Numbered from the stretch's first letter, positions 7,936 to 40,827 are shown. The stretch is DNA of 64,000 nt from Bryobacterales bacterium (GCA_965248205.1 CBDFIS010000006.1:6637997-6701996); one strand, 5' to 3'. Numbers and translations: made by a program. The notes: generated by a model from the sequence alone, not told the origin.

Positions 7936-8883
7936 ATGATTTATCCTTTCACCAGCCTCAACCCAACTCTGGAGCCTCATTTCGTCAAAGATCCCGGTCC
8001 CAATAACCGCCAGGCCGCGTTCTGGGCTTTCATTCACGCCCAGGAAAAGACGTCCTCGACGCCGTCCGCCACAGGGCCTCCCCATTCAGAATTGCCCTCA
8101 CGGGCACGACACGTCGCATCCCTCGGCGGCCTCGAGAGCACCTCGGTCCCACCGTTATGGGCTCGAGCCCACCATGTGGCTCGGGGACGACTGCCTACTC
8201 ATTTGCCGCCCCATAGCCCCGCCGGCAGTCATCGTCCCACGAGCCTCCCGGAACTACCCTCCACCACGCAGCCACTCGTTAACCCCGGCACTCCCCGTTA
8301 CGAGGACGTTCCCGAGTGGGCGAAGCACCCTCTAGGACCGTACCGGCAGGCGCCGGCCGAATACGGAGGCGAATGGTGGTTCGTCAATCCGTTCACGGGG
8401 CCGGAACCCTGGATTCCCCGCGCGTCTCAGAGCGAGCAGGTCCTTCCAGACGGCTTCGCCGAAATATTCGGCTCGCGGCCACAAATGCGAGACTACAAGA
8501 GCAGTAACGAATTCTACGCCGCTCGGCTTACTTGGGAACAGGATCTGAAGTTCTTTAGAGGCGCCGGAGTGCCCGAACATCTCGATGTTGCCGAGATCGA
8601 ACGTGTTGGCGACATATACGAAGAGTGGGGCATGGGCCGGCCTTTGTTTTACGAAGGCCGCTACGGTTGGAAGGTTCGCTTTCCCGACTCGCACATCCCC
8701 AATTTTGAAGCCAATCCAGAGGGGATGATCCGCGCGCCACACGTACTCGTCGCACAGTATCAGATTAGGCTGATACAAAAAGGGACAGTCCCAGCGAATC
8801 CACATCCTTTCGTTCCTCCCGAGCTTTTCCCGGGTGGAACTGCGCTTGATCCCTTGAACGTGTCAGGCGAATCCGAATCCTAA
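7936..8883 (+). CDS. Hypothetical protein (Pro-rich N-terminus, aromatic-rich globular C-terminus)
   Basis: 315-aa ORF filling the intergenic space; no recognised motif. Confidence 0.6.
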   Translation: MIYPFTSLNPTLEPHFVKDPGPNNRQAAFWAFIHAQEKTSSTPSATGPPHSELPSRARHVASLGGLESTSVPPLWARAHHVARGRLPTHLPPHSPAGSHRPTSLPELPSTTQPLVNPGTPRYEDVPEWAKHPLGPYRQAPAEYGGEWWFVNPFTGPEPWIPRASQSEQVLPDGFAEIFGSRPQMRDYKSSNEFYAARLTWEQDLKFFRGAGVPEHLDVAEIERVGDIYEEWGMGRPLFYEGRYGWKVRFPDSHIPNFEANPEGMIRAPHVLVAQYQIRLIQKGTVPANPHPFVPPELFPGGTALDPLNVSGESES

Positions 8884-9090
8884 GCGTCCCGCGGTGCCCC
8901 GAACAAACGCTCGCCGCTTCTGACCGCCTTCCAACTGAGCCAGGTCCAGGTAGGCTGCCCGGCCAGGAAGATGTGAAAGAATCGGGACCGCCACAAGCGG
9001 CGCTCTCGGAAGCCTTTCGGATTCACCAGTCTTCACTCGCCGCGGTTGTCTGTCCCAGCGTTTTTTCACACCTTCAGCACCGATTGGTAG

Positions 9091-9867
9091 TTGCCTCTCT
9101 TTGATACAGTAGTGCCGGTGCACCTCTGGGTCTTGGCGGTTTCCGTTTTTTTCAGTAGCTCGTTGGCGACCGCCAAGGTGCGCGTCATGGTGTGGTCGGA
9201 GCGGAGTGAACCCGTGGACGTTTACCCGAACGGCATCAACGGTGCGATTCGGACAATGCTCGAGCTCGACCGCGGAATCAGTGTCGAAGCCGTGAACCTA
9301 CTCGATCCCCAGCAAGGTCTCGACAAAAGCGCTCTAGACAAAACAGACGTGCTGGTCTGGTTTGGCCATTTCAATCACGCAGATGTCACGGATGAGAACG
9401 TAGCCCGGGTTGTACGCCACGTCGTCGAGCGAGGCATGGGTTTTTTGCCGTTGCACTCGGCACACGCCAGCCGGCCGCTTCAGAAACTGTTCGAGGTCAA
9501 AGCCAAAAGCATAGGGATCGAGCTTGATGGAAGAATCGGTGCGTGGTCTCAAGTGACCAACCACGGGAAACCGGAGAACATCCGGGTGCTGGAGCCTCGC
9601 CACCCGATCGTGAGAGGGGTTGCGGATTTCGTAATCCCCGTAACGGAGATGTACGTCAACCCGCTCAACGCTCCTCCGGCGGACCGCAAGATCTTGGAAG
9701 GATCGTGGGAAGGCGGTGAGCAACGCGGCAGCGACGGCTTGATCTGGCGCGTCGGAAAAGGCAAGATCTTCTACTTTCGCCCGGGACACCAAACACGCCC
9801 CATCTATCGTCAGCCGGAGGTTCAACAGATTCTACGAAATGCAATCCGCTGGCTGGCGAAACGCTGA
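9091..9867 (+). CDS. ThuA-like (trehalose utilization) domain protein
   Basis: YPNGINGAI, DVLVWFGH, GMGFLPLHSAH and GKIFYFRPGHQT motifs; possible signal peptide. Confidence 0.88.
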   Translation: MPLFDTVVPVHLWVLAVSVFFSSSLATAKVRVMVWSERSEPVDVYPNGINGAIRTMLELDRGISVEAVNLLDPQQGLDKSALDKTDVLVWFGHFNHADVTDENVARVVRHVVERGMGFLPLHSAHASRPLQKLFEVKAKSIGIELDGRIGAWSQVTNHGKPENIRVLEPRHPIVRGVADFVIPVTEMYVNPLNAPPADRKILEGSWEGGEQRGSDGLIWRVGKGKIFYFRPGHQTRPIYRQPEVQQILRNAIRWLAKR

Positions 9868-10083
9868 CTGATAGAACCCGACATCCCTTCAAAGTCTCAC
9901 CTAGCCAATCGCCGGCCCCCCCCTAGAGGATGCATAGTCCTCCCCAAGAGGCCTTGTCCTCTGGGCGTCGCCATAACTGTCGCGCCTCGGCAAGGTGCCG
10001 CCTTGAATAAGTTTGTGGAGCTACGGATTGTTGTATTGATTACCGACGCGAGACTGCTCCTGCCCCCCAGCGATTAACGTGTG

Positions 10084-11589
10084 TTATCGCTCGTTTTCCG
10101 GTAGAGACCACATTGGTCTCACCCTTTTCCGAAAATCGTCACTGTCCCCGCCACTCAGGACGTCCCACAGGGGCAGCCCCGCCTGGCGTGAGACCTCCTC
10201 CGTTGGAACCAGGAAATCCGAAGGTTCCTTGTCCGTCTTTTCGTTGGGGATAACGAAGGACCACATCCGCAGCCTTCCATGTGTGGGCTCCGCGAGGACC
10301 GATTTAAAGAATGCATCCGGCAAAATGACACGACTGTCACCGATAAACTCAACTCTGCCGCCCACCTGAAAAAGAGGGCCCGAGATCACGTAGACCTCCA
10401 AATACCGTTCCTGTGCTGCTAGTTCCCTCACAGCGACCTCGAGCAGTCGCCATATACCACGATTGAACTTCGGTTTTTGGGGGGTGAGATTACTAGTTAG
10501 GAACGTCTCGCTATTAACGATCGCCCCCTGGCGATGATTGCCTGGCGTAGCCAAATGGCCGCGATCGTACCCAGAGCCCTTCCAATCGTTCGGGGTAGAA
10601 CGAAACTGTGCTGGAATCCTGAGATCCTCACGAAAATTATCCATTCGCCTTAACCCCTCTTCCACCTGCAATGTGCGGTCGTTGAGAAGTTCCAAGACCC
10701 ATCGTGGCTGGCGACGTTCATATGAGTAGCCTACGATGTACTCGCGATTGAGGAGGTATTGGTCTGCTGTCGGGATTCCGTACCGTGCTTCAGGTCTAAG
10801 GCTTAAAATTTGAGCTCTGGTGATGCCGGTCGCATCCTCTTTTGTAGTAGGCGACCCACCATCATCGGTGGGAGTTGTGCCGCTGTCGTCGATGCCAAGG
10901 GCCTGGTCACCGTTGTCTTTCGGCGAAAAGAACACTGCAGCGACCAAGAGTACGGTCGCCGCTGCGACTCCCACCGCCGCGCGCCGAGCGAGGCGGAACT
11001 TCCTTGTACCTTTGCTAGGCGGCGTTGGTCCAGCCTCCACAGGCCTAGTTCGTTCGGTCGCCCCCGCGATCGGTAGGGTGCTATGTGCCCCTTCGTTGCT
11101 CTTGGGGAGCTTGTCCAGTTCGCCTACTTGAATGGGGCCATGCGGCGTTGGGGAAGTCTCGGCAGGTTCTGAAGGCGGGGGAGACGGGCTTACCGCGCGT
11201 TTTTCAATGCCCAGACTCCTCAGAAGCAAGTCGACGCCGTCTTGGTATTCGGCGGTGAAATCGATGTACTGCACGCGCCGCAAACGAAAAGGGATCTCGC
11301 AAGCACGAAGCAAGACCGGAATCACTTGCTTATTCGTTTCCAAGGCGAACGAGATCTCGTCCATGACGTTGGTCGATCCAACGGCTGTGGGAGAAAGTAC
11401 GACTAGCAAACTCTTGCAATTCGCGAGGGCATTCTCGACGGACTGATCCCATCGCTCACCAGGCTGTATGTCGAGTTGGTCAAGCCAGAGGTTTGCTCCG
11501 GCTTCGCGCAGGTCCTTGGCCAGCCGGAGCGCGAACTCACTGTCCTCACGCGCGTAGCTTATGAAAGTTTGACCTTCGTCGTTTGGCAT
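10084..11589 (-). CDS. TIR domain - transmembrane helix - DNA/RNA non-specific endonuclease (NucA/EndoG type) fusion
   Basis: N-terminal FISYAREDSEFA...VMDEI (TIR), then TM AAVGVAAATVLLVAAVFF, then GYDRGHLA, SNLTPQ and FNRGIWRLLE nuclease motifs. Confidence 0.88.
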   Translation of the reverse strand: MPNDEGQTFISYAREDSEFALRLAKDLREAGANLWLDQLDIQPGERWDQSVENALANCKSLLVVLSPTAVGSTNVMDEISFALETNKQVIPVLLRACEIPFRLRRVQYIDFTAEYQDGVDLLLRSLGIEKRAVSPSPPPSEPAETSPTPHGPIQVGELDKLPKSNEGAHSTLPIAGATERTRPVEAGPTPPSKGTRKFRLARRAAVGVAAATVLLVAAVFFSPKDNGDQALGIDDSGTTPTDDGGSPTTKEDATGITRAQILSLRPEARYGIPTADQYLLNREYIVGYSYERRQPRWVLELLNDRTLQVEEGLRRMDNFREDLRIPAQFRSTPNDWKGSGYDRGHLATPGNHRQGAIVNSETFLTSNLTPQKPKFNRGIWRLLEVAVRELAAQERYLEVYVISGPLFQVGGRVEFIGDSRVILPDAFFKSVLAEPTHGRLRMWSFVIPNEKTDKEPSDFLVPTEEVSRQAGLPLWDVLSGGDSDDFRKRVRPMWSLPENER

Positions 11590-24480: not shown

Positions 24481-25637
24481 TCTCCTGTCCGGGCTAACTC
24501 TTTACAATAGCTTCTTTGCAGCGGCGCACCTTGTCGAGAATGACATCCGCAGTGGCTTTCCAAACAAACGGTTGGGGGTCGTGGTTCCAGATGGCCAGCC
24601 ACTGATAGATCGCTCGCTCCAGTTCTGCCACACAATGGAAGGTTCCTCGGCGGATCATGCGGTCGGTGAGGAGCCCGAAGAGACGTTCGACTTGGTTGAG
24701 CCAGGAACTGCTGGTGGGCGTGAAGTGAAAGTGGAAGCGGCGCCGCTTTTTGGGTTGCAACCAGCGCTGGACGGCCGCGCTTTTATGGCTGGAGTAGTTG
24801 TCCATGATGAGGTGAACTTCTTGATCCAGCGGCACCTCTCTTTCCACTTGGTTGAGAAACCTGACGAACTCCTTGGCGCGATGCCGAGGCAGACAACTGC
24901 TAATCACTTTCCCGTTCAGGATGTTGAAAGCAGCGAACAAGGTGGTGGTTCCGTGGCGCTTATAATCGTGCGTTTGTCGCTGTGGCAAGCCGGGCCGTAA
25001 CGGCAGAATCGGAGCCGTTCGGTCCAGGGCTTGGATTTGGCTCTTCTCATCCACGCACAGCACCAAAGCCCGGTCGGGCGGATGCAGATACAAGCCCACG
25101 ATGTCCCGCACCTTCTCTTCGAACTGCGGGTCCTGGGAGAGTTTGAATTTCTCTACCCGATGGGGCTGCACCTCGTAACGTTGCCAAACCCCATGCACGA
25201 GCGTGCGGCTCACACCGAGATGCCGGGCCAGGGTGCGCACACTCCAGTGGGTCGCATCCGGCGGCCTGGTCTTCAAGGTCGTATCGAGAATCTTCTGCTC
25301 CAACTCGGGCGTCAACACACGTCGCGAGCGCTGGCGTTTTTGCCGCCGCCGGATCGCCTCCACCCCGCCCCGCGCGAAGGCGGCTCGCGTCGCGATCACG
25401 GTCGGACGCGACAAGCCGATCTGCTGCGCAATGGCGTGGTTGGGCACTCCCTCGCCAGCCAGCAAGATCAGCTGGCATTTCCGCGCCAACATCTGCGGCG
25501 TGCTTCCGGCACGGGCCATCGATTCCAGTACCTGTTTCTGCGCCGGATTGATGGCAAGCGGAGTCGCTGGGGTGAACATGCCCCATTACATCATGATCCC
25601 GCTATATTGTCAATAGTTATAACGGACAGGACACTAG
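24477..25637 (-). mobile_element. IS630-family insertion sequence
   Basis: Inverted ends CTAGTCTCCTGTCCG / CGGACAGGACACTAG (1 mismatch) enclose an intact transposase. Confidence 0.93.
24494..25579 (-). CDS. IS630 family transposase
   Basis: HTH region THWSVRTLA; DDE motifs CVDEKSQIQ, YKRHGT, MDNYSSHK and SSWLNQVE. Confidence 0.96.
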   Translation of the reverse strand: MFTPATPLAINPAQKQVLESMARAGSTPQMLARKCQLILLAGEGVPNHAIAQQIGLSRPTVIATRAAFARGGVEAIRRRQKRQRSRRVLTPELEQKILDTTLKTRPPDATHWSVRTLARHLGVSRTLVHGVWQRYEVQPHRVEKFKLSQDPQFEEKVRDIVGLYLHPPDRALVLCVDEKSQIQALDRTAPILPLRPGLPQRQTHDYKRHGTTTLFAAFNILNGKVISSCLPRHRAKEFVRFLNQVEREVPLDQEVHLIMDNYSSHKSAAVQRWLQPKKRRRFHFHFTPTSSSWLNQVERLFGLLTDRMIRRGTFHCVAELERAIYQWLAIWNHDPQPFVWKATADVILDKVRRCKEAIVKS

Positions 25638-25699
25638 TTGGGACGATACGTGCGCAGGGATCTCTCGATAAGCCGGCTGCAATTTAGTGGTGGAGAAGT

Positions 25700-28600
25700 C
25701 TCGGCGTGACAAAATGCGCGATCACGTTGTCGGAGACTTGCGGCCGTTGACTCGGGGTCGTCGTAAGGCTGCGCGAGAGCAAGAAACAGAGCCTGGAACG
25801 CAAGTGACAGGCCAAGTCCCGTAGCGAGGATCTAGGCGGGTGCGATCTCGCTTCCCTCCGCCGCTGTCGCTGCGCCGCCCGCCAGATCCGCGGCCTTTCG
25901 CTTTTGTGGCGCACACTCTCAGTGTGCCGCGTCGAGACTCTTCTCGACGCTTGGGGCCGTTCGGCTCCCAACCGCTGATACTCTCTTACGCCGCTCAGTC
26001 CCGGCAGTCCCGTCGCGCACGGCTCGGCGGTCGTCTTGTCGACACTTGCGACCGTTGGCTATACGTGAACGCGACCAGGCAATTATCGGCCGATCCCGGT
26101 AGGGACAAACAATCCTGTTTGTCCTAAGCTGTGATGGAAACACCGATCTTTTCCGCATTGCACGGTTCGTCACATACGGCCGCGACACTGTCGCGCCCTG
26201 AGGGTGATCGGCCGTGCCAACGGCCGATCCCGCTCTCTCGTCCTTCGCCACCATGCCGCTACCATCTCGCTAGACGGCGTTTTCTCTCCGCTAGGACACG
26301 ATTTTGGTACGGAAAATCCGGCCTCGAGGACCCTTCTGACTACTCCCGCAAAACGCCGTCACAGAGTTTTCACTTTTTTTCTCCTCGCCGCCTCAACGAC
26401 TTAGGCCCCTGGGGCTCTTCTAACCCACAATCCGTCCCGTATTCTGGTACGGGGCCCAGAAACCGAAATCTCAGAGGAATGACCCTGGTATTTCCGCCAC
26501 TTTCTGCCACCGCCATTTCTCTCGGCGGTTGGGAACGTTGCTATGTCTCACAATTCAGAAGACTTAACCATCAAGCAGAACGCTCTCATCGGCACCCCAC
26601 CCGACTGCCAACCCACCGCCAGGTGACGAAAATCGCCCGCTAGCCCACTCCTAGGTTTTTTGCTCGCGAGACGACTTTTTCTGGCGAAATAGTGGCTCAA
26701 ATTGGTCTCGCAGGCATCGTGATTTCTGGCCAGACGGGTAGCGCGCTGTGGGCTGTCACTTGGCCCGCGCGTGCGGCTGTTTTCAGCCGCTTGGACGGGG
26801 TAAGAATCGCAAAGGGAGTGCCGGCGTCGAGCACCGGAAAGAGCCGTGCCCGTCAGGGCACGGGCCCGCCTGATGGGCATGAGTTCCGGCTCGAAGCCAA
26901 CCGTTCACCGCCTGCGGAAAGTACTTGACCTGCCCGCCATTGTCAGTGGAGATCTTGAAGACCAGCACATCCGCAGCAGAGGCAAAAATACGAAACAAAC
27001 CCAATTCCTAGCAAGCCAATTGCAATCAATGGGTTACGGTTTGTTCTGAGCGCCGCGGGTAAGATTAGCGAAGGGGGACATGCTGATTCATGACCAGAGT
27101 CAACAGGGAAGCGGCCATCGCCCAAGACACTTGGACCCACGTGCTCTTCTCGACGAGCGGGGACCGCGCACAACTCATCTATCTTCGCCTAGGATCCTTG
27201 CCCCAGCGAGGACCCCTTGGCCGTTGGCGCTCGACCGATCCCGGTAGGGATGAACACTCCTGTTTGTCCCAGCCGCCGCCAGGCGGCTCTCACGACGTTT
27301 GAGCCGCGGAGCGGCGCCGGAACGGCGGAACCCTAGGCTAGGAATTGAACAGAGTCGAGCCCTGAAAGGGCGGAAGGAACGATGGGGGAAACCGGGACCG
27401 AAACCGGGACCGAAACCGGACCGAAACCGGACCGAAACCGGACCGGGAAACCGAAACCGGGAAACCGGGACAGCCTCGGACCGAAACCGGGGCGGAAACC
27501 GGGACAGCCTCAGTTAACACCTTGGGGCGGAAACCGGGAAACCGGGCGGAAACCGGGGCGGAAACCGAGACAGCCTCAGTTAACACCATGGGCAGCGGGC
27601 ATCTTTCCGGGCCTGCACTACACAACGGCTGGCAACATTCCATTAACGCTGGCCCGGCTGGTCGCATCCTGGTCCGCTCCTTTGGGCGCTCGACCGCCCC
27701 TGACGGTCGAGCGGGGCCTGGGGTGGGGCAAAAAATCGGCCGTGCCAACGGCCGATCCGACTCGCCGCCCGCACTCGCACGACCTCTCCCCCAAAACGCC
27801 GTCACCGCAGTCTGAAATTTCTAACTCGCGCGCCATCAGTGAAATCGTCCTGCCTTGACCATCTACGCTCCCCGTGCGATGTTACTCTGGGCCCGTAAGA
27901 GCGCCGGCCTTCAGGGAGCGACAGACCGGCGCACCCCCGGCCGGGATGTAAGTCCTCCCCATGGCCTCCGTCGGTGAGCCGATCACCCGACCGCGTTACA
28001 CAGAACAACGGGATCGATCCCAAACCGTTTGGCGGCTCCGCGCGATACCAAAGGAGCCGCACCTCATCAAGCCGCGCCCGGGGCGCCCTTAGCAACCCGC
28101 GGTAGAAGCTAGCATCGGCAAAAAATAGGACAACAAGACTTAACCGGAAACAACACAATGGCAGTGCCGCCCCGGATACCGCCGAAAACCCCCTCCAAAT
28201 GGCCGCCAAACCTCTGGTAGAGGCAGGAAAAACCGCGTTTTCCGCTCGCTAGACGTCGTTTCTGGCACGCTAAATGGCACGGCTTGTGCCCTTCGCAGCC
28301 ATCGCCGAGGTCCGGCGGAAGTTCCGATGAGGGAGAATTGCCAAACAAAGCCAATCCACACATAAGTCGAGATAGTCTCATAGTGCATGGGCGCGGCCGT
28401 CGTTTGCTGAGACTTGCGGCCTTGGCTCGGGTCGCCGCAAGGGTGCGCGAGAGCAAGAAACAGAGCCTGAAAGGCCAAGACGAATAGCACACTACCGGGC
28501 TGTTGTCTGGGCCAAGGCCTGGGGCCGTTTCTCCCACACGGGGATCGCTTTCCCGTGCGGTTGGCGATCGGTCGCTGGGGGCGACCGATCGGAGATTGGG

Positions 28601-28850
28601 GTGGCGCAGTGAGGGCCGTCGGGGCCGGCCCTCACCAATCGAAATGACGAAACAAACCCAATCTCGCCTAACTACTTTGGAATCTATCGCGTGCTCCCCC
28701 GTCTGCTCGTGGGAAACGCCGGCTAGAAAGGACAGACAACCTTGCCAATGCCCTGACACTTTGCCGAGTCCGCGGGAGGAGATCGCCGCAAGGCGATCCG
28801 CTCGGAACCGACACGCCAAGCTGCGCCCGTCGAAGGCCGTGGTGTATAGT
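25700..28850. repeat. Gene-poor mosaic of dispersed repeats
   Basis: Paired units GGCCGTGCCAACGGCCGATCC (~26210, ~27738), CCGATCCCGGTAGGGA..CCTGTTTGTCC (~26090, ~27235), ACGAAACAAACCCAAT (~26990, ~28647) and GCGCGAGAGCAAGAAACAGAGCCTG (25771, ~28445). No credible ORF. Confidence 0.7.
27385..27590. repeat. Imperfect tandem array of GAAACCGG(G) units
   Basis: More than a dozen GAAACCG units, with ACAGCCTCAGTTAACACC occurring twice. Confidence 0.9.
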
Positions 28851-28914
28851 GATTTGGTTCACGACCGAGCCGTCACGCCTCCTTTGCGAGGCGTTGCCGC
28901 GGGGAGAACCATCT

Positions 28915-30843
28915 ATGGCATCTGACACTCTCTACCAACCGCCCAAGGAGTTTGCGAAGCGAGCGTCTGTTGCAAGCATGGATCAGTATCGCGAGATCTA
29001 TCGCCAGGCTACCGAGGACCCGGAAGGTTTTTGGGGACAGTTCGCGGAGAAGGAACTCCACTGGTTCGAAAAGTGGTCCCGGGTGTTGGAGTGGGATGTG
29101 CCTTTTGCCAAGTGGTTCGTCGGCGGCAAGACGAATATGAGCTACAACTGCCTGGACCGTCACTTGCTGACCTGGCGGAAGAACAAAGCGGCGATCATTT
29201 GGGAAGGTGAGCCGGGCGACGAACGGGTGCTTACGTATCAAGAGCTGCACCGCCGCGTGGCGCGGTTTGCCAACGTGCTGAAGCAATTGGGCCTCAAGAC
29301 AGGCGACCGCTCCATCATCTATATGCCGATGGTTCCTGAGCTGCCCATTGCGATGCTGGCTTGCGCACGGCTTGGCATTACGCATAGTGTCGTTTTCGGG
29401 GGGTTCTCGGCGGAGGCGCTGAAGACGCGCATCCTTGACCTCGACGCAAGAGTCGTCATCACGGCCGACGGTGGTTGGCGGCGCGGCAAAGAGGTTCGGC
29501 TCAAAGACACGGCGGACGAGGCTTTGCAAGACTGTCCGGATGTCAAACACTGCATCGTCTATCAGCGAACAAACAGCGATGTTCGGATGAAGGCGGGCCG
29601 AGATCACTATTGGGCTGAGCTGGAGCAAAACGCGGGTGAGGAGTGCCCGGCTGAGGTGCTCGACGCGGAGCATCCGCTCTACGTCCTTTACACTTCGGGC
29701 ACCACGGGCAAGCCCAAGGGCATCGTCCATACGACGGGAGGCTACCAGGCGCAGGTCAGCGCGACCATGCGTTGGGTCTTCGACATCAAGGATGAAGATA
29801 CCTACTGGTGCGCCGCTGACATCGGCTGGGTCACCGGACACAGCTATATCGTCTATGGACCTCTGATGGTTGGTACGACCACGGTGATTTATGAAGGCGC
29901 GCCCGACTTTCCCGAGCCGGACCGTTTCTGGCGCGTCATTGAAAAGTACAAGGTCAATATCTTTTACACGTCTCCGACTGCTATCCGGGCGTTTGTCAGG
30001 CAAGGGGAACAATGGCCGGAGCGCCACGACCTGTCGAGCCTGCGGCTGCTGGGAACCGTTGGGGAGCCCATTAACCCCTCGGCGTGGGAGTGGTATCACA
30101 AGACGATCGGCCACGAGCGCTGCCCGATCGTGGACACTTGGTGGCAAACGGAAACCGGGTCGATCATGCTCTCTCCGCTGCCGGGAGCCACGCCGACCAA
30201 GCCTGGGTCGGCGACTTTCCCGATGCCCGGCATTGTGGCCGATGTCGTCGACATGGAAGGCAACTCGGTCGAGGCAGGCGAGGGCTACTTGGTCGTCCGC
30301 CGGCCGTGGCCGTCGATGATTCGGACATTGTGGGGCGACCCGGAGCGTTACAAGGAACAGTATTGGTCACAGATTCCGGGGATTTACTTTACCGGCGACG
30401 CCGCTCGGCGAGACGAGGGCGGCTACACCTGGGTCCTCGGTCGAGTTGACGATGTGATGAACGTAAGTGGACACCGGCTCAGCACGGCGGAGCTCGAATC
30501 GGCGCTCGTGAAGCATGAAACCGTTGCCGAGGCAGCCGTGATCGGCAAACCGGATGAGTTGACCGGTCAAGCCGTCGTCGCGTTCGTGACCCTCAAGCAA
30601 GGTGTCGACGCCAACGATGAGTTAAGTGAGACTCTGCGCGGTTGGGTGTCGCAGGAAATCGGCAAGTTCGCGCGTCCCCAGCAGATCCGCTTCACCGAAG
30701 CCCTCCCCAAAACCCGCAGCGGCAAGATCATGCGCCGCCTGCTACGCGAAATCGTCACCACCGACAAGGTGTCGGGCGACATCACGACCTTGGAAGATCT
30801 GTCGGTAATCAACCGACTGGCGGGGGCCCAGGAGGAAGAGTAG
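28915..30843 (+). CDS. acs: Acetate--CoA ligase (acetyl-CoA synthetase)
   Basis: [31 protein letters not shown] and [11 protein letters not shown] motifs. Confidence 0.97.
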
Positions 30844-31601
30844 GGCGGGCCCAGACACTCTCTGCCTGAATGACGCAGAAGGCCTCCAGATCACCTTTGA
30901 AACAGGACGCCCCGGAGCCCGAGGGCATCGAAACACGCAAACACTCGCTCGAAGCCACCGAGATCACGCCGCAATGAGCCGTGGCGTACCCGAACGAGCG
31001 CAAGACGGGCTGGCTTCAAACGCCGGTGATAAAGGGTGGGGGGGGGCCGGAGGTCCGACCCTAGCTACGTCAACGGTATCACTGGCCAGCTGCCGCCTTC
31101 TTCGCAGCAAGAGCAGCCTGAGCTTGCTCCGTCTTTATCTTCCTTTCTGTCGGGTTTCGGATACCGAGCGTGGTGAAGACACGAAACACTCCGTCGCTCC
31201 CACCAGCGATGAGGAGCGCAGTGATGACCTGACCCCAAAACGTCAGCGTCGCCTTGTACCCTAGGGCAACCAGAACGTCGCGCAAGACATCCAGGTCGTA
31301 GGTCCAAAAGACCAGCAAAGCTAAAATCACCGTCAGTGGAGTTTTGACGCCCTGACCCTCGAATCGAGCAACGAAGACGCGCCAGTTGAATATAGGGGTA
31401 AGCGCTACCTCGAAGATTACAGATAGCACTAAGAAAACAAGCAGCACTTCACCGACCTCGCCGAGTCGTGACTGGTCTTGGGAGGCCGGCGCGGCAACGG
31501 CAACACCAGGTTGGTCGGCGGCCACAGCGGGCGAGGGATCCTGCGCCAACAGCAGCAAAGGTGCGAGCAAAAGGACAAGAAGTCCAGCGACTATGCTTCT
31601 C

Positions 31602-32930
31602 CACTGCTGTCCGGTTAAAAGTCGAATAGAATCAATTGGTTGGGGTCATAGGGGGATTCGTTTGGGGAGTCGGATGGCTGGAGTGCCTGTAAAAGGGGCA
31701 TTTTTTCGAATTGCGTAACGCTGAGAATCTGTAGAATCTGGTAAAGACTCGCTTCCAGCCCGAGGCGTTTCCGGACGATGGCGATGAGCACGTAAATCGA
31801 GACAGCGATCCAGATCTGCGTCTTGACGGCGTTCTCGCTGGTGCCGTAAAACGAGTTGATTCGCAGATGTTGCTTGATCCACTTGAAGAACAACTCAATC
31901 TGCCAACGCGACTTGTAGATGTGGGCGATGGTCAGCGCCGGGAGCGCGAAGTTGTTGGTCAGAAACTTCAGCCGCTTGTTCGTCCGGGCGTCGAAGTAAC
32001 TGACCCTCCGCAACGGGTCGGGATAGGCTTGGGCCGATTCGATGGCAGCCAGTATGACGGTCTGATCCGAGCGCAAGCCCGTGGATTTGTCGACGGGATG
32101 CGAGTAGCGCCGTTGGAGCAAGATGTTCTTCTTGGTTCGCACGACGAAGAACGACGAGCAGAGAGTGAACACGAAGAGGCGTTCGAAATCGACGTAGGCC
32201 CGATCCATGACGTAGAACGCGCCGGCCTCCGGGCCGATCTCGTCGAGGATGTTGATGTCGTGCACTTTGCCTCCAGTAATGCGGATGAACGTGGGAATAT
32301 TGCCGTGCAGATCCAGCAGCGTGTGCATCTTCACGGCGGCTTTTTGCTTGCGGAATCTCGCCCACGGAAACAGCGACAGGCAGAGGTCGATTGTTGTCGA
32401 GTCGAGAGCGTACAGAGTCTGGTCCAAGTCCACACCGATCGGGTCGTGGGCATATAACGGCCGTGCCATGCCAATCAAGACCTGCGCGAAGTCCGCGTAG
32501 ATCCGCCAGTCGCGCGACTCGTTCGCGTCGGCCAGTGTCGAGCGCGCTACCCTGCCGCGGAATCCCATGTGGTAGAGTTTGCCGTGCATCGAACGCAGGC
32601 ACGTCTCGATGTCGCGGAGGCTTGCCCGATAGGTCAGCTGGGCGAATGCCATCGCAAGAAACTGATCCCAGCAGGAGAAACTTTTCAGATAGGAATCGCC
32701 GCGGTAGCGCGATACACATTTCTGAAACTCTTTGCTCGGTAGGTGCTCGATCAGTTGGGAGAAAACCGTACGGCCAAGGTTCATCCCTCATTGTGCCGCG
32801 TCCGGATGCTCCGTTCAGGCGACCATTTGCGGCCTCGGGATTTCAAATCGTTCCCGGGCAAAACAGGCCATAAGACATTGAACGGTCGAGACTTACCGTC
32901 CGATGGCGCGACTTTCCCCGGACAGCACTG
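31602..32930 (-). mobile_element. IS4-family insertion sequence with 9-bp target duplication
   Basis: TIRs CACTGCTGTCCGG / CCGGACAGCACTG. Direct repeat ATGCTTCTC at 31593-31601 and 32931-32939. Confidence 0.95.
31615..32784 (-). CDS. IS4 family transposase
   Basis: DUF4372-like N-terminus, ALDSTTIDL, VMDRAYVD and YKSRWQIELFFKWIKQ (YREK) motifs. Confidence 0.96.
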   Translation of the reverse strand: MNLGRTVFSQLIEHLPSKEFQKCVSRYRGDSYLKSFSCWDQFLAMAFAQLTYRASLRDIETCLRSMHGKLYHMGFRGRVARSTLADANESRDWRIYADFAQVLIGMARPLYAHDPIGVDLDQTLYALDSTTIDLCLSLFPWARFRKQKAAVKMHTLLDLHGNIPTFIRITGGKVHDINILDEIGPEAGAFYVMDRAYVDFERLFVFTLCSSFFVVRTKKNILLQRRYSHPVDKSTGLRSDQTVILAAIESAQAYPDPLRRVSYFDARTNKRLKFLTNNFALPALTIAHIYKSRWQIELFFKWIKQHLRINSFYGTSENAVKTQIWIAVSIYVLIAIVRKRLGLEASLYQILQILSVTQFEKMPLLQALQPSDSPNESPYDPNQLILFDF

Positions 32931-33047
32931 ATGCTTCTCATGTAGTGTCTCCTTTCACGATCGAACTCTTCTGGAGGCTAACGAATGAAGGCTAGCTGGC
33001 AGCTGGGCCCACAAACGACTTCCAAGCAAAAGACCATCGGCATTGAA

Positions 33048-33995
33048 TCAATTACCGCTCTCTGCTGTTTCCGACTTAACTGTGCCCGGCCACGAAAGCC
33101 CCAGGGCTTCCGCGACCATCGGACCGACAATGCCATCGTCGGCTTCGGGACCAAAGTGGCTTTCTTGAAAAGCCATGACGGCTCGATGCGTCCTTGGGCC
33201 AAAGTCGTCGTCGATATCTCCCTCGTAAAAACCTTCCCGCTGTAAGGCCGTCTGTACCTCGGCCACGAGCGAGTCGAGCGAGCCGAAGCGCAGCTTGACA
33301 GGAAGCTTGTTAGGCGCGAGAACGGCCTGCTCCAACTCCCTGGCATTGACAAGAACGTACGGAAAAGACTTTTGGTCTGTCGCGTACGCGTTCGCCTTGA
33401 ATTCCTTCCAAGCTCCCACGACCGGCTTGTCGCCTCTTTTTTCGCATTCTGGAAACCCGACAACGACCTGACATCCCGCACTTCCATAGGAGTCGTGGTC
33501 GACTCCCATCGACCAGCCGGCGTGGAGGTTGTCACCAGGGTTGGTGACCTCGAAACGATCAAGATTGTCAAAGTCAAGGTCGTCCGCCGTGCGGCGAACC
33601 GGGCGCTGCGACGACTGAACGAAAGCCTCGTGCCCTGTGGGCTTGCTCGCCAGATGCCTACCCTTGCGGTAGTCCTTGTAGAATCCCGTCATCATCTGGT
33701 TGGCCCCAGCTCCCGATTTAGCCAGAGCTTTGTGAACGAACTTTTTGTGAGGGACAGTGCTCCCGGGAAACAGAGCGAGAGTGTTCTCTTCCCTGAGGCA
33801 TTGGACCAGCGTACAGCGAGGGTGAGTGTAATCGATGTTCGTAATACTCAACTGTTGCTCTTGGGCAAATCCGAAATCCTGAGGAGCAACGGGAAGAGCA
33901 CCTCGCAAACCGAAGAAGATCAGGTTCTCATCACCCAAGGCGAAGCGATTCCGTTCTACTAAGAGCTGGAGATGATTGGTAGTGACCGAGACCAT
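33048..33995 (-). CDS. Putative L,D-transpeptidase-like (YkuD-type His/Cys) protein with C-terminal peptidoglycan-binding domain
   Basis: NLH-x12-SAGCQV motif. PG_binding_1 pattern VAEVQTAL...DDDFGPRTHRAVMAFQ...DGIVGP. Confidence 0.7.
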   Translation of the reverse strand: MVSVTTNHLQLLVERNRFALGDENLIFFGLRGALPVAPQDFGFAQEQQLSITNIDYTHPRCTLVQCLREENTLALFPGSTVPHKKFVHKALAKSGAGANQMMTGFYKDYRKGRHLASKPTGHEAFVQSSQRPVRRTADDLDFDNLDRFEVTNPGDNLHAGWSMGVDHDSYGSAGCQVVVGFPECEKRGDKPVVGAWKEFKANAYATDQKSFPYVLVNARELEQAVLAPNKLPVKLRFGSLDSLVAEVQTALQREGFYEGDIDDDFGPRTHRAVMAFQESHFGPEADDGIVGPMVAEALGLSWPGTVKSETAESGN

Positions 33996-34051
33996 GGCTA
34001 TTCCCTCGCTCGCTACCCTTAATCCGTTAAACCAACTGCCACCAACTAGCC

Positions 34052-35056
34052 TTAGTTCGCCGTGGCGACCGCGATGATCCCGACTATCGCCGGCAGTACC
34101 CCGATGAAGATCTCAAATGGGCTTTTTTTCTGGGCTTCGATGGCTCTGGTGAGTATTTCAATATTCTGTCGCGAGACCTGGACGGCTTGCTGAAGATCAG
34201 CAACATCAGCTCTCAACAGAGACTTTTTCTGATCCAGCAACTGGTTCTGGGTTCGGGTGTTGGCAAGTCGTCGCTCGTAGAGATTGTGGAGGGCCAGTTG
34301 TAGTTTTAGCTCCTCGTCTCGTTTGAGGACCACGTCGTTTCTGCTGGCCACGTACTGGAGTTGAATACCGCCCGAGCGGACGAAGAGCTGGAACTGGCTA
34401 CCGTCCGGTCTACTCCTGCCCATCTCGAGACGAACGTTATCCGGGTCGATGGGCAGGCTCAGCAGCCCGGCACGGGCCGGCTCGGCTTCTAGGACCTCTT
34501 CAACTGAACTCGCAGCCGGCTCGGCTTCGCGTGCTGCGGTGCCAGTTGTGCTAGTAGCGCCTGAGGCCCCAGAGGATCCCTCTTCGTTTGCCCCCTCCCC
34601 CGTTGCAGCTGACGGTGCCGCTTCCGGGACGGGAAGTGCCGATTCCAGCTCAGCCTGGCTCTGCTTGGCAACGGCGAGCGCCTGCAGCAAGTCAGCCTTA
34701 TTAGCCACCAATGCCCGGACCTGCTTCTCGAGGTCAGACTGCTGCTCCTTGAGGTTGCCGAGCGAGGTTTCGCTTAGAGAGTTGAACTCAGCCAGCGCAG
34801 CTAGTTGTTGTTTGAGTGCCTGTACAACATCTTCGCGGGAGGCCACGTACTTGATGGGAGAACTCCCACCAATGCGCACAAGTACAAGGAACTGGCTGCC
34901 ATCGGGGCGAATTCGGTCACGCACGATCTCAAGAGCAGCGTCCTCGGGCACTGGGATGGAGAGGAACTGCGCTGAACTCGGCGTGCAAACCAGTCCCAGG
35001 AAAACGAACCCGGTGACTAGCCTCGAAAATGGTCGTCTGCGTTTTGTTTCTGCCAT
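34052..35056 (-). CDS. Exported coiled-coil protein with tandem duplicated domain and C-terminal TM anchor
   Basis: AGGAG RBS and signal peptide. RPDGSQF..VR.GG..YVASR.DVV occurs twice, each followed by a coiled coil. Hydrophobic C-terminus. Confidence 0.8.
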   Translation of the reverse strand: MAETKRRRPFSRLVTGFVFLGLVCTPSSAQFLSIPVPEDAALEIVRDRIRPDGSQFLVLVRIGGSSPIKYVASREDVVQALKQQLAALAEFNSLSETSLGNLKEQQSDLEKQVRALVANKADLLQALAVAKQSQAELESALPVPEAAPSAATGEGANEEGSSGASGATSTTGTAAREAEPAASSVEEVLEAEPARAGLLSLPIDPDNVRLEMGRSRPDGSQFQLFVRSGGIQLQYVASRNDVVLKRDEELKLQLALHNLYERRLANTRTQNQLLDQKKSLLRADVADLQQAVQVSRQNIEILTRAIEAQKKSPFEIFIGVLPAIVGIIAVATAN

Positions 35057-35198
35057 GACTCTTGCTCCTATATGGGAAGGACTTCTGAAACTGAAGCGTT
35101 CGTTGCCGAGTTGTTGACTGCGGCACATCGACGCTCGTCTGCCTCGCGGAGCGGGCCGGTCGAGCGCTGTCTTGAGCCAGCGACTATTACTCTACTCT

Positions 35199-35681
35199 CT
35201 ACTGTCCAGGTCCGGCGGGGTCAAGGAGGTCGGCGCCTGAAAGACTCGCAGCATCTTCCGGTGTGCGCACAGTGATCCTGGATTTGATTCTGTTGATCTG
35301 CTCGTCTAGTCCCGCGTTCTCTTGGCGTAGCCGATCCAGCTCCTGGTCGATTGCCGTGAGTGCGGCTTCTCGCTCGCGCACCCTCGCTTCCGCGGCCGCT
35401 ACCTTTTCGTTGTTGCTTCTTACCTGACTCAGCACCTGGTCGAAGTTCTCGTTGGAGGAGCCTGTGATAGCGTCAACGATCGTTCTGAAGTCCTCGCCAG
35501 CGAGAGCGCTAAGTACTTGGGAGATCCGAGACTGCTTTTGCGGATCGGCCATCGCGTTCTCCATTTGTTCCGACTCTTCTGCTGGTAGAGGTGCTCCGGT
35601 TGTGTCCTCCGGCGTTTCGTCCGGGCTACCTGTGGTGGTGTCGCTGCTCGTTTCTTCGTTTGCGTTGGTATCTTCTGGCAT
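35199..35681 (-). CDS. Hypothetical acidic coiled-coil protein
   Basis: AAAGGA RBS, heptad-rich C-terminal half, co-oriented within the operon. Confidence 0.75.
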   Translation of the reverse strand: MPEDTNANEETSSDTTTGSPDETPEDTTGAPLPAEESEQMENAMADPQKQSRISQVLSALAGEDFRTIVDAITGSSNENFDQVLSQVRSNNEKVAAAEARVREREAALTAIDQELDRLRQENAGLDEQINRIKSRITVRTPEDAASLSGADLLDPAGPGQ

Positions 35682-35740
35682 AGTTAGCTCATCCTTTAGT
35701 TAGTCTTCTAGTTCATAGTTCAAGTCTTTGTGGCTGGCAG

Positions 35741-36571
35741 TCAAGCCCTCCGCAACTCCAAATCCTCCGCGATCACTTCTTGCCCTTTGCGATACGCTTC
35801 CGTGAACGGCTCCAGGCCGTGGCTGCCGCCGTTGACCAGCTTGCGGGCTTGGCGGAGGTCGTCTTGTGCGAGCGCCGCGCGGATTCTTGCCTCCTGGCCT
35901 TTGATGAAGCTTGCCAGCAGCTTGGAGGCGATTTGGGAGTCGTTGCCAAGATCAGGTTCTTCGACTAGTCGGTCGCCGAGGCCTATCGCCTGGCTGTGTT
36001 TCGTGTAGTTGAAGCGGCCCGTCAACTGAATGAATCCGCGACCCTTGAAACGGGCGCCGTCAGGTTTGCCTTGGTTGCCGAGGTCCGTGCGATCGTCGTA
36101 GAGATCGAAGTCGTGTCCGTCGGGGGAGGTGTTGAATCTAGACTTCAACTCGCTAATGGGCTTGAAACCCTCGGTCTCCGCCCGGATCGACGACAAGGCC
36201 ATCAGGACCATCTTTTGGTCCCGCAGTGCGGAGTCCACCAGCGCGCCGAGGACATTTGGCAGGTGCTCGCGGATATTCCTGAGCGGCGTATGCGGCGAAA
36301 ACATCTGCGATACTGCGGTGACGCTGACGCCCTCGAACCCTGAAGGGATCTCGGCATCGGGGTCGAAGTTCAGCGCCGCCGCAGTCGTTTCACCCACGAC
36401 CCCGTCGACTGTTAAACCATTAAAGTCTTGGAAAGCGCGAACGGCACGCTCCGTGCCCGGGCCGAAGCTGCCGTCAACCCCACTGGGGTCGAACCCCAGT
36501 TCTTCCAGGCGAAGTTGTAGCACGATCACAGCCGTGCCGGCGGAACCTCTTCGCAGCGGAAGCAAGCCCAT
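35741..36571 (-). CDS. Peptidoglycan-binding domain + GH19 lysozyme/chitinase-like enzyme
   Basis: N-terminal DGSFGPGTERAVRAFQ...DGVVG. GH19 motifs AETEGF, DGARFKGRGFIQLTGRFNY and VNGGSHGL. Confidence 0.9.
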   Translation of the reverse strand: MGLLPLRRGSAGTAVIVLQLRLEELGFDPSGVDGSFGPGTERAVRAFQDFNGLTVDGVVGETTAAALNFDPDAEIPSGFEGVSVTAVSQMFSPHTPLRNIREHLPNVLGALVDSALRDQKMVLMALSSIRAETEGFKPISELKSRFNTSPDGHDFDLYDDRTDLGNQGKPDGARFKGRGFIQLTGRFNYTKHSQAIGLGDRLVEEPDLGNDSQIASKLLASFIKGQEARIRAALAQDDLRQARKLVNGGSHGLEPFTEAYRKGQEVIAEDLELRRA

Positions 36572-36942
36572 GGAAACCGGACACACCTTGGCACTATTGA
36601 GACACTTTTGTCAATGGCCTGGTGGGTATCCGAAAGATCTGTTCCGAAAGTGGAACAAGAACGTGTTTTATGTGGACCTGCGCGATTGATTCCAAAGGTA
36701 TTCCGGGCAAAGGACGAGCAGACTTCACTAACATACGTGCACGGGTGACTACTTTTTTCGGGAATCAGAACAGAAATAATGAATGAGATGTAAACTAACT
36801 CGCCCTTGTTCTGGTGAGACGCGTCTACTCCACGTACACGTTCGACCACAAGTTGCCGGCGGGTGCCGCATTCTGCAGGGTCTTGGTCGGTGAGCGGAAC
36901 GGGCGGGATTCACCTCCGTGACGGACTCCTTGGGGTGTGTAG

Positions 36943-37098
36943 TTAAGGGCCATCCCAGGGGTAGTGTCTTCGTGAAAAATCGGGTACAGCCAGCCAGTGC
37001 GCTTCAGACTGAGTCCTTTGTTTCGAGGGCCATGACGGGGAGCGAATTGTGGCAGTCCCCATTTTCCGCTCTGCACCACCTTTGCCGGCAGGCGCTAG
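36943..37098 (+). mobile_element. Degenerate MITE, family B
   Basis: Core AAAAATCGGGTACAGCCAGCC...GGCAGTCCCCATTTT is shared with 52295-52451. Ends decayed. Confidence 0.7.
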
Positions 37099-37234
37099 GG
37101 TTCTGCACTACATCGTTTCGGGGGAGCGGGGCTGGGCGTGGTTCACTATCGTGAAGGTTACGAGCTTACTCTAGCGGTGTTGGCTTCTCATTTCCTTGCT
37201 CTCTGGTGTTTCGGCGATTGGGCCGTGAGTTCCC

Positions 37235-38218
37235 ATGTACTTGCCGCTTGCGCTGGGGCGTCTAGTGAGGCTCCCGAAATACCGTGACCTTGGAAGCCGG
37301 GCACGGCAGGCCGTGCCCCTACGATCTGAACAAGGGGACGTGTCAGTCCAATTCGCGAAACTCAGCAGGGACGACCGGTGCCGGGGCAAACCGTATGCGG
37401 CGTGGGAGGGAACATCACTTCAAGACAGGACAGCTCTGGTTCTGTACGATCCCGTTTTGGGGTCTGACAACGCGCGGCTCTATCTGAAACGGGGAGAGTT
37501 GCAGCGCCTTCACCGCGATTGGGACGCTGCTTTGGCGGACTACAACCGCGCTTCTGAGCTGGCGCCGGATCTCTCGGGGGTCCATCTTTCCCGCGGCCGA
37601 ATGTGGTTCGAGTCGGGACGATTCAGCTCTGCCCTGACCGAGCTAGACCGCTTCCTATTTGCTCAGCCTGGGCACGCGGAAGGACTTCTCTGGCGGGCGC
37701 GGGCGCTGGTCAAGCTCGGGAACGGACTTGAGGCTGCAGAGGACTACACCGCTGCCATTGCCCGACTGAAGCGCCCAACGCCGGAATACTTCTTGGAGAG
37801 GGCGCGAGCATTGGTGAACGCGGGTGACGAGTATATCGACGAAGCACTCCGCGGGCTGGACGAGGGAATCGTTCGACTGGGTTCCCTAGTCACCCTCCAG
37901 CAATTTGCCATCGAACTCGAGCTCAAGCAGCAAAGATACGAGCAGGCGCTGGCGAGGCTCGACCGGGTGGCACGCTGGATGGCACGGGAACGGTTCCTTC
38001 AACAGCAGGGCGCCATTCTCGAGCAGGCCGGCCGATCTGTCGAAGCCAGGCAAGCCTTTTCGGCAGCACTAGCCCACATTGAATCTCTTCGGGAAACGCG
38101 CCGCAGCGCAAAGCCCATCGTAGAGCTTCAGACCTCTCTGCGCGCCGCCCTTGGCCTACGATCCCCTGACAGAGCTAGCCCGCTTTTCTCACCACCCGAC
38201 GGTCGAAGCACGCAATAA
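37235..38218 (+). CDS. Tetratricopeptide repeat protein (5' end uncertain, possibly pseudogenised)
   Basis: TPR units YLKRGEL..WDAALADYNRA and RARALVKLG..AAEDY. 5' region holds a REP hairpin; the C-terminus runs into a MITE. Confidence 0.7.
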   Translation: MYLPLALGRLVRLPKYRDLGSRARQAVPLRSEQGDVSVQFAKLSRDDRCRGKPYAAWEGTSLQDRTALVLYDPVLGSDNARLYLKRGELQRLHRDWDAALADYNRASELAPDLSGVHLSRGRMWFESGRFSSALTELDRFLFAQPGHAEGLLWRARALVKLGNGLEAAEDYTAAIARLKRPTPEYFLERARALVNAGDEYIDEALRGLDEGIVRLGSLVTLQQFAIELELKQQRYEQALARLDRVARWMARERFLQQQGAILEQAGRSVEARQAFSAALAHIESLRETRRSAKPIVELQTSLRAALGLRSPDRASPLFSPPDGRSTQ

Positions 38219-40090: not shown

Positions 40091-40193
40091 TGCTATTGGC
40101 GACCACGCTGCGCGGACACAACACCGTGATTGTTGATCTCAAGAGTCAGTCCGACTCTCGGGGCGACGAGCTACATTGGATAATGTAGCTACC

Positions 40194-40469
40194 ATGACAA
40201 CTGTCGCGAGCCGTGAGCTCAAGAACCGCCTGGGAAAGTATCTGCGTCTGGTCCGTGACGGGCGGCCCGTACGGATCACGGACCGCGGCCGTCCCATCGG
40301 TTGGATACTTCCCGAGTCTTCCACCGCCGAACGTTCGCAGGCCCTATTGAAGGTGCTGGGAAAAGGAAATACTCGTTTCGGTTCCGGTCAGCTCGGAAAG
40401 AAACGTCGTCCCGCGGCCATGAAGCCCGGTAAGTCCATCGCGGAGATGATCAGCGAAGACCGCCGCTGA
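40194..40469 (+). CDS. Phd/YefM family antitoxin
   Basis: MTTVASRELKNRLGKYLRLV..G.PV.ITDRGRP; stop overlaps the vapC start (TGATG). Confidence 0.9.
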   Translation: MTTVASRELKNRLGKYLRLVRDGRPVRITDRGRPIGWILPESSTAERSQALLKVLGKGNTRFGSGQLGKKRRPAAMKPGKSIAEMISEDRR

Positions 40470-40522
40470 TGCTCTACGTAGATACGTCGGCTCTCGCCAC
40501 ATTCTACTTGGCCGAGCCCGGC
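40469..40522 (+). pseudogene. VapC (PIN) toxin N-terminal remnant
   Basis: MLYVDTSALATFYLAEPG is a typical PIN N-terminus; similarity is lost after it. Confidence 0.75.
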
Positions 40523-40581
40523 GGGATCACATCGCGGACTCCGGCGTTGACATCTTGGTGTTTCAAAGACATCATCAAGAT

Positions 40582-40827
40582 GTGCGAACGACCCTGACTC
40601 TTGACAATGATATCGCTGACAAACTTCGCGAGGTCGCCAAGAAAACGGGCCGGCCCTTCAAGCAAGTTGTCAACGGAACGCTACGTTTGGGTCTAAACGC
40701 TAAGCGAACCATGAAACCCCGCAGGCGGTTTACTGTTCGTACGCGCGACACAGGACTTCGTCCCGGCTTTGAGTTTGACTGTGTGTCGTCTCTGCTGGAG
40801 GATCTCGAGGGACTGCCGAGTCGATGA
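40582..40827 (+). CDS. VapB-type ribbon-helix-helix antitoxin
   Basis: (V)RTTLTLDNDIADKLRE...FKQVVN.TLRLGL motif. Confidence 0.88.
   Translation: MRTTLTLDNDIADKLREVAKKTGRPFKQVVNGTLRLGLNAKRTMKPRRRFTVRTRDTGLRPGFEFDCVSSLLEDLEGLPSR

Follow-up and report, generated by a model that had tools for sequence, protein, structure and literature searches.

Within a 64,000-nucleotide stretch of the genome of a Bryobacterales bacterium (GCA_965248205.1 CBDFIS010000006.1:6637997-6701996; hereafter the window, in which positions are counted from the first letter) we analyzed five co-oriented open reading frames (ORFs), g1 to g5, located on the minus strand at 31079-36586. We read them as a mosaic, phage-derived cassette for opening the cell wall, of the holin/endolysin type (resembling type 10 secretion systems, T10SS, or autolysis modules) and sitting in a variable slot of the genome. 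We put the probability of this reading at roughly 0.45, i.e. slightly below even. The region is composed as follows:

36587-36850, minus strand: AT-richer region 5’ of g1, possible promoter region, about 90% identical to the congener G003
35741-36586, minus strand: g1, PG_binding_1 domain and putative glycosidase of glycoside hydrolase family 19 (GH19), endolysin-like; start codon GTG at 36586 (281 aa) or ATG at 36571
35199-35681, minus strand: g2, 160 aa, acidic, soluble, coiled coil, predicted partner of g3; conserved part about residues 42-160
34052-35056, minus strand: g3, 334 aa, predicted signal peptide, two copies of a beta-rich domain plus coiled coil, C-terminal transmembrane (TM) anchor
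33048-33995, minus strand: g4, 315 aa, predicted YkuD-fold Cys/His domain (residues 1-235) and PG_binding_1 domain
32931-32954, minus strand: original ribosome-binding site (RBS) and start of g5 (AAGGAG at 32949-32954, start codon at 32939-32941 and the next codons), separated from the gene by an insertion sequence (IS)
31602-32930, minus strand: IS4-family insertion sequence, transposase at 31615-32784
31079-31592, minus strand: remainder of g5, membrane protein; ORF as it stands 31079-31570

An earlier note, made from the sequence alone, had reported five co-oriented genes behind an AT-richer region, four of them with clear RBSs, and this layout was found again. All five genes are encoded by the minus strand and spaced 56-142 nt apart; by eye, Shine-Dalgarno-like motifs precede g2, g3, g4 and the original start of g5, and no clear one precedes the start of g1. 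The AT-richer region shows no match to a sigma-70-like consensus, the promoter scan giving 0 hits. The terminator scan was uninformative (5 observed, 6.9 expected), and Rfam had no match in 25500-37400.

The first gene, g1, carries a PG_binding_1 domain at its N-terminus (Pfam, 1.1e-19). Its match to Glyco_hydro_19 reached 23.3 bits, below the cut-off of 25.5, and covered only positions 103-147 of the 232 profile positions. Among the phage endolysin families of PHROGs it matched phrog_181 (1.7e-24, residues 24-274) and phrog_9506 (3.2e-16, residues 92-264), and among solved phage endolysins in the PDB 9ms7 (6.6e-11) and 4ok7 (3.4e-7); all four we take to be of GH19 type. The whole catalytic part is kin of phage endolysins, and because of these matches we assign g1 as a putative GH19-type endolysin-like glycosidase. 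No hydrophobic segment and hence no signal peptide is present. The earlier description of g1 as a signal-less GH19 enzyme with a peptidoglycan-binding domain thus stands for the binding domain and, by way of endolysin kinship, for GH19, though not by the Pfam cut-off.

A second PG_binding_1 domain is found in g4 (residues 243-298, 4.5e-13), which likewise has no hydrophobic segment. Its residues 1-235 belong to no Pfam family, and Pfam YkuD (PF03734) gave no match at E<=0.1. A first AlphaFold model of the whole protein, built from 20 sequences, was poor at residues 95-187, Foldseek matched with it the PG-binding domain alone, and it was set aside. A model of residues 1-235 from 131 sequences reached a predicted local distance difference test score (pLDDT) of 96 and was aligned to 48,161 PDB representatives without a pre-filter. 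All 20 chains at Z>=5 (5.4-8.0) have the YkuD fold; the next chain is unrelated and scores Z 2.6. The best matches were Pgp2 (Z 8.0, root-mean-square deviation 3.7, 123 residues aligned), Bd1075 (7.8) and Csd6 (7.6), and others included several L,D-transpeptidases, LdtGo, DpaA and the type VI secretion effector Tlde1a (Z 5.6). The top rows of Foldseek for this domain were L,D-transpeptidases too, but at E>=0.046. In the 131 sequences of the family H158, G174 and C175 are invariant and S172 nearly so (at least 90%). The resulting S-x-G-C motif lies 17 residues past the histidine (His-x16-Cys), a spacing like that of the catalytic His and Ser/Thr-x-Gly-Cys motif of YkuD enzymes; C61 and H114 are invariant as well.

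Profile kinship between g4 and YkuD was not found: hhalign gave a probability of 0.16% for the 131-sequence alignment against 11 YkuD domains taken from the source genome and its relatives. The earlier label “YkuD-like” for a signal-less g4 is therefore right at the level of the fold and finds no support at that of the sequence profile. The domain does match phrog_3000, and in BFVD g4 has five predicted phage protein structures as matches at E<=0.001; the best reaches 6.3e-10, and one carries the name “Lysin”. Distant relatives occur in two viral contigs, in one of which the relative sits after two small membrane proteins; a tblastn search of 50,697 phage records returned a single record, with the PG-binding part alone. 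A table in PMC8310338 counts YkuD, with 10 entries, among the rare domain classes found in lytic proteins of phages. Because fold matches occur without profile kinship and the look-alikes are phrog_3000 and phage lysins, the modelled domain represents a new YkuD-fold family with lysin-like relatives. This family comprises 239 proteins at E<=0.001 among 652 candidates. Identity is 48-79% among the 120 matches listed, our own entry excepted, and the sources, spread over many phyla, include Geobacteraceae, Carboxylicivirga, Desulfobaccales, Longimicrobiales, Cyanothece and Rufibacter.

Between the two putative hydrolases lies a pair of genes that is very rare and conserved as a pair. The g2 protein has a net charge of -19 and no hydrophobic segment; its 19 family matches in Pfam are coiled-coil ones, all weak and below the cut-off, in keeping with the acidic coiled coil described before. 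The prediction that g3 is exported, duplicated and anchored at its C-terminus was also borne out by our analysis: hydrophobic segments lie at residues 13-29 (signal-like) and 312-334, and a low-complexity linker connects two halves that share 41% identity over 106 aa (E 1e-19). We place the start of g3 at ATG 35056, as in the database form P0001; the open frame extends to 35128. By the positive-inside rule the bulk of g3 is predicted to be periplasmic. A collection of 5.8 billion proteins holds 5 relatives of g3, and among 1.84 billion representatives there were 12 matches, 9 of them at E<=1e-10. With g3 as query the genomes of 40 relatives gave 0 matches, so that the source genome stands alone among 41; a sample of 401 genomes of the phylum gave the source genome, two weak partial coiled-coil matches and nothing else. 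The family was not found in viral contigs. At all four metagenome loci of g3 relatives the gene immediately upstream is a g2 relative; since three of the loci are nearly identical copies of a single one, the four amount to two independent lineages.

Structure prediction places g2 and g3 in one complex, with a score of 0.78 as compared to 0.00 for the best of 3 controls. A score of 0.78 is reached by 116 of 157 solved complexes and by 2 of 215 mismatched pairs. The alignments were self-made and shallow (3 and 11 rows); the runs share at least 66% of contacts, with a partner pLDDT of at least 75. In the model the second coiled coil of g3 (about residues 242-308) packs antiparallel against a g2 helix (about 79-133), and the g2 tail (135-153) lies on the second beta-rich domain of g3. 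Neither protein matched a spanin family in PHROGs, and g2 has neither a signal nor a lipobox. We also considered g3 as a u-spanin and dropped this, the lipobox-like Cys of its signal peptide not being conserved in an 11-sequence alignment. Of the earlier idea of spanin- or conduit-like coiled coils the pair itself is thus real, while the spanin features are missing. ESM Atlas look-alikes of g3 and g4 are phage proteins scoring 0.83-0.84, below the level at which we count a match, and serve as leads only.

The second lineage of the pair is represented by a metagenome contig (L038) on which four genes precede a g2-like and a g3-like gene, all on one strand at 4623-8951:

gene 1: signal-less protein with LysM and Peptidase_M15_4 (1.3e-16), matching several endolysin PHROGs
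gene 2: 107 aa, directly after the hydrolase gene, with two hydrophobic stretches and a charged tail, holin-like
gene 3: 303-aa membrane/coiled-coil protein
gene 4: 283-aa protein of no family

Directly after the pair follows a 16S rRNA gene (9696-11245); upstream are a phosphoglucosamine-mutase-type gene, a methyltransferase, a tetratricopeptide repeat (TPR) protein and a LuxR-type regulator. In both lineages the pair is accompanied by a signal-less wall hydrolase and small membrane proteins, of differing families, and in neither are phage genes nearby.

The last gene, g5, is interrupted. The earlier note had merely hinted at damage by speaking of a “repaired” cassette; we found an IS4-family element of 1329 bp (transposase against NF033592, 8.8e-74) with imperfect terminal inverted repeats of 18 nt and a 9-bp target duplication (31593-31601 and 32931-32939). 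It is inserted three and two-thirds codons past the start codon and cuts the body of g5 off from its RBS, ATG and first signal-peptide residues. Removal of the element and of one duplication copy restores an open frame of 174 aa and with it an N-terminal hydrophobic segment. The remainder has hydrophobic segments, a linker of low complexity and a C-terminal tail that is basic; in the family consensus a signal peptide and a variable linker are followed by three TM stretches and a basic tail. The topology therefore agrees with the holin-like protein proposed before; a holin family match does not support it, and g5 belongs to no family in Pfam, PHROGs, NCBIfam or PADLOC. In the public sequencing run X2 a contig of 3641 nt bridges 31592 to 32931 directly, with 9 letters fitting both sides. 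Its two pieces, 30800-31592 and 32931-35700, each differ from the window by one letter. The insertion is therefore recent, and an allele without the IS exists. In the source strain the loss of RBS, start codon and first signal-peptide residues from g5 has probably switched the cassette off. The genome (contig C6) holds 224 full-length copies of the element, 210 of them identical. Altogether the element accounts for about 0.3 Mb of the 6.9-Mb genome, a massive recent expansion.

The g5 family comprises 195 proteins at E<=0.001 among 758 candidates, with 47-88% identity across phyla among the matches listed, our own entry excepted. Its occurrence is sporadic: 4 of the 401 genomes of the phylum sample (the source genome included, one match weak) and 2 of 401 in a second phylum sample. 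None of five genomes holding g4 contained a g5 relative, and the family was not found in viral contigs. At one locus of the family (L052, 7962-9415) the gene for a g5-family protein that lacks a signal peptide runs into the start of an Endonuclease_NS gene whose product is exported; because of the overlap, the sequence suggests that the two genes are translationally coupled.

The cassette is flanked by the acetyl-CoA synthetase gene (acs), directly downstream, and by genes for a TPR protein and a thiamine pyrophosphate (TPP) enzyme upstream. We compared this slot with that of two congeners. In G003 the flanking proteins are 99% and 98% identical, and the interval from acs to the TPP enzyme measures 3.3 kb as compared to 7.5 kb here. 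Its slot (L076, 931-3517) retains the region upstream of g1 together with g1 up to about codon 134, at 89.6% identity over 597 nt. The G003 g1 is an ORF of 143 aa that stops just ahead of the catalytic part and is followed by an unrelated ORF of 665 aa without a Pfam family. In G002 the slot (L077, 1442-5679) harbors an ORF of 790 aa that belongs to no family and is unlike the 665-aa ORF, as well as a signal-less protein that combines Muramidase (PF11860, 7.9e-57) with PG_binding_1. The slot thus holds three different hydrolase-led sets in three congeners. In the RNA-library run X19 one contig passes from g1 into unlike sequence. Contigs of this run cover g1 and the IS and none covers g2-g5, which speaks neither for nor against transcription.

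We then looked at the gene context of g4 relatives at 29 genome loci, where 93 of 117 neighboring ORFs were scanned against Pfam (most of the other 24 were the g4 relatives themselves or ORFs in antisense or overlapping position). An all-against-all comparison of the neighbors revealed no cluster common beyond close kin. A g1 relative adjoins a g4 relative at one locus (L010, 3e-87). On this contig, from an Ignavibacteriaceae metagenome-assembled genome, a g1-like GH19 plus PG_binding_1 gene stands directly before the g4-like gene (467-3098), and a gene for a SLATT/DUF4231 protein with 2 TM segments lies divergently upstream. Small co-oriented proteins with at least 2 TM segments were found within 300 bp of the g4 relative at 3 of 29 loci as compared to 2 of 162 control ORFs, which are small numbers. 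Some neighbors carry defence-type domains: CHAT (L002), trypsin and a KAP NTPase (L024), SLATT/DUF4231 (L010) and an AAA ATPase (L007).

In the mechanism that we propose, a candidate membrane component (g5 here, the 2-TM protein in the second lineage) would pass the signal-less g1 and g4, and possibly g2, across the inner membrane. There g1 would cut the glycan strands, and L,D bonds in the stem peptides would be cut or edited by g4. On the periplasmic side of the inner membrane, the g2-g3 complex might serve in a spanin-like role or in gating or regulation. As in type 10 secretion or autolysis, the wall would be opened locally or the cell would lyse.

A number of results weigh against this proposal. 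The complete five-gene set was found at none of the 29 loci of g4 relatives, searched with all five proteins, nor at the 4 metagenome loci of g3 relatives or the 5 loci of g5 relatives with flanks read. Relatives of g2, g3 or g5 were absent from the neighborhood of all 29 g4 relatives, and a second wall hydrolase accompanied g4 at two of these loci (L007, PF11860; L010, GH19). At the 5 flank-read loci g5 relatives stand alone or beside an exported nuclease and never beside a wall hydrolase; g5 matched no holin family in Pfam or PHROGs, and its family is unusually conserved for a holin. Assembled contigs of all four public sequencing runs compared with the region break at 35696, between g1 and g2, and in run X2 the depth of the g1 region is 64.6 as compared to 9.54 for g2-g5 (about 6.7 times), so g1 is often joined to other sequence. 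The controls of the complex prediction were unrelated proteins, not coiled coils. Furthermore g2 has no export signal, though it is modelled on the periplasmic part of g3: g2 might leave the cell interior together with the enzymes, or else bind g3 prior to export and hold or regulate it. An o-spanin-type lipoprotein is absent from the cassette, and the g3 family has no conserved lipobox Cys. Finally, no candidate for a cargo gene was found among the ORFs scanned around the cassette, and no regulator gene was seen there.

Taken together, the slot comparisons and the run contigs identify g1 with its upstream region as a stable edge, behind which the content is exchangeable. The recurrent sub-set is g2 and g3 only. 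Of the co-occurrence that was asked about in the earlier note, the pair holds (4 of 4 loci, two lineages), the five-gene set does not, g1 with g4 was seen once and g5 with the others never. In view of this patchy co-occurrence we see the region as a mosaic built from sub-modules of the known holin/endolysin kind and do not follow the earlier proposal of a single undescribed system of five parts.

Part of this evidence could be explained without any present function. The region might be the remnant of a lysis module from a decaying prophage or mobile element that is being lost piecemeal. Both g1 and g4 have phage relatives, the IS interrupts g5, G003 retains just the first ~134 codons of g1 ahead of its unrelated 665-aa gene, and g3 is missing from the 40 relatives, a search that covered g3 alone of the five. 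Yet no phage structural or integrase family was matched by any of the 21 larger ORFs scanned around the cassette (12967-53823), in line with what had been noted before, and no tRNA lies at its borders, the sole one being at 54016. The IS aside, all five frames are open, and the IS-free copy in X2 differs by a single letter per piece. The second-lineage cassette likewise lies among housekeeping genes. Nor is the cassette confined to prophages: searches of viral contigs gave no member of the g3 or g5 family. The strong conservation of the g4 and g5 families across phyla argues for selection. We consider a remnant unlikely, though an explanation to be taken seriously. Another possibility is that there is no unit at all, and that wall genes acquired independently are chance neighbors in a recombination hot spot, each acting alone. 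The unrelated neighbors at 27 of 29 g4 loci with no cluster shared beyond close kin, the solitary g5 relatives and their absence from the five g4-holding genomes, contigs ending between g1 and g2 in all four runs and the three gene sets in the slot of three congeners would all fit. The single orientation, the short gaps of 56-142 nt and the RBSs speak against it, as do three proteins that lack export signals and have their targets outside the cytoplasm, so that a partner is needed. In addition, the g2-g3 pair adjoins a signal-less hydrolase in both independent lineages, and small proteins with at least 2 TM segments accompany g4 relatives more often than controls (3/29 and 2/162, again small numbers). 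In our judgment this explanation is distinctly improbable.

We regard as very unlikely a module for anti-phage defence (abortive infection by self-lysis) or inter-bacterial antagonism in a hot spot resembling a defence island. The variable slot with hydrolase-led sets that differ between G002 and G003, the defence-associated domains next to some g4 relatives (L002, L024, L010, L007) and the presence of the YkuD-fold effector Tlde1a among the g4 fold matches (Z 5.6) point in that direction; against it, PADLOC models were matched by none of the five proteins save for coiled-coil noise on g2, the ORF scan of the window showed no sensor, immunity gene or delivery system, and defence-like neighbors occur at 4 of 29 g4 loci only. 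A bolder proposal, which we think improbable, places the g2-g3 pair at the center of a non-phage device, as yet undescribed, by which soil bacteria would open the envelope with exchangeable hydrolases. If this were true, acidic g2 would exit with the hydrolases and then arm membrane-anchored g3, or restrain it until then, and the pair would form a new functional class beside the spanins. The hydrolases would be swapped (GH19 and YkuD-fold here, LysM-M15 in the second lineage), and the slot between acs and the TPP enzyme would be a hot spot of hydrolase-led cassettes, possibly for defensive self-lysis or content release.

The flanking ORFs of the scan, 21 in number, belong to housekeeping or other ordinary genes. 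The TPR gene (37235-38218) was considered as a conserved neighbor of the cassette and rejected, since five congeners gave weak repeat matches only. Between this gene and g1 lies a repeat of about 120 bp (36968-37090) with some 95 copies in the genome, 82-94% identical among the 11 matches listed and very deep in the sequencing runs. It has the look of a miniature inverted-repeat transposable element (MITE) or a repetitive extragenic palindromic (REP) sequence, and another copy adjoins acs in G003. Upstream of acs, in about 3 kb without convincing ORFs, a short tandem array is located at 27388-27577 with 11-12-nt units of GAAACCGG(G)ACC type, a super-period of 34 nt and no Rfam match. A second, different transposase gene (DDE_3 and helix-turn-helix domains) adjoins hisG at 24494-25579. 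A possible toxin-antitoxin pair at 40176-40827 consists of a Phd/YefM-type antitoxin gene and, after it, a 90-aa ORF without a family.

Compared with known systems, the closest likeness of the putative cell-wall-opening cassette is to T10SS and domesticated lysis cassettes. According to excerpts of PMC13284979, a T10SS consists of a holin and a signal-less hydrolase of phage origin, spanins being optional, and in one case a muramidase depends on a YkuD-type enzyme. As here, Serratia ChiWXYZ, Salmonella ChiH-ChiP and TtsA with YcbB are chromosomal and stand-alone, envelope coiled-coil proteins are optional, and the peptidoglycan hydrolase lacks a signal and depends on a membrane protein for entry into the periplasm. 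The typhoid-toxin system (TtsA with YcbB) also pairs a muramidase-type enzyme with a YkuD-fold enzyme. Membership in the T10SS kind is nevertheless incomplete: our cassette has no recognisable holin family, no lipoprotein spanin pair and no cargo gene, is not conserved as a unit, and carries two hydrolases where the excerpts give one. Unlike YcbB, which is Sec-exported (PMC13284979), g4 has no signal peptide and has a PG_binding_1 domain.

With the holin-endolysin-spanin cassettes of phages of Gram-negative hosts the region shares a modular PG_binding_1 endolysin, a small multi-TM protein with a charged C-terminal tail and a periplasmic coiled-coil protein anchored in the inner membrane; it differs in that no phage genes surround it and in the g3 and g5 families not having been found in viral contigs. 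An i-spanin is anchored by its N-terminus, whereas g3 has a signal peptide and a C-terminal anchor, and its partner g2 is a soluble acidic protein and not an outer-membrane lipoprotein. With the YkuD L,D-carboxypeptidases and transpeptidases (Pgp2, Bd1075, Csd6, LdtGo, DpaA, Tlde1a) g4 shares the predicted fold and the His-x16-Cys spacing in S-x-G-C. It departs from them by about 90 extra residues, the invariant C61 and H114, the missing export signal and the lack of a Pfam YkuD match; its domain groups with phrog_3000 and the phage “lysin” look-alikes, and the family may be an unrecognised lysin class.

Three families of the cassette, the YkuD-fold plus PG_binding_1 family of g4, that of g5, and g2-g3, have no Pfam, NCBIfam or PADLOC family or named PHROG. 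Those of g4 and g5 are widespread and g2-g3 is very rare; each is a concrete target for biochemistry. Our literature search found no paper joining a lysis cassette with Acidobacteria, and to our knowledge holin/endolysin cassettes outside phages (type 10 secretion, programmed lysis) come almost only from a few Proteobacteria and Firmicutes. If our reading holds, the cassette described here would be an acidobacterial case of this kind, built from different parts.

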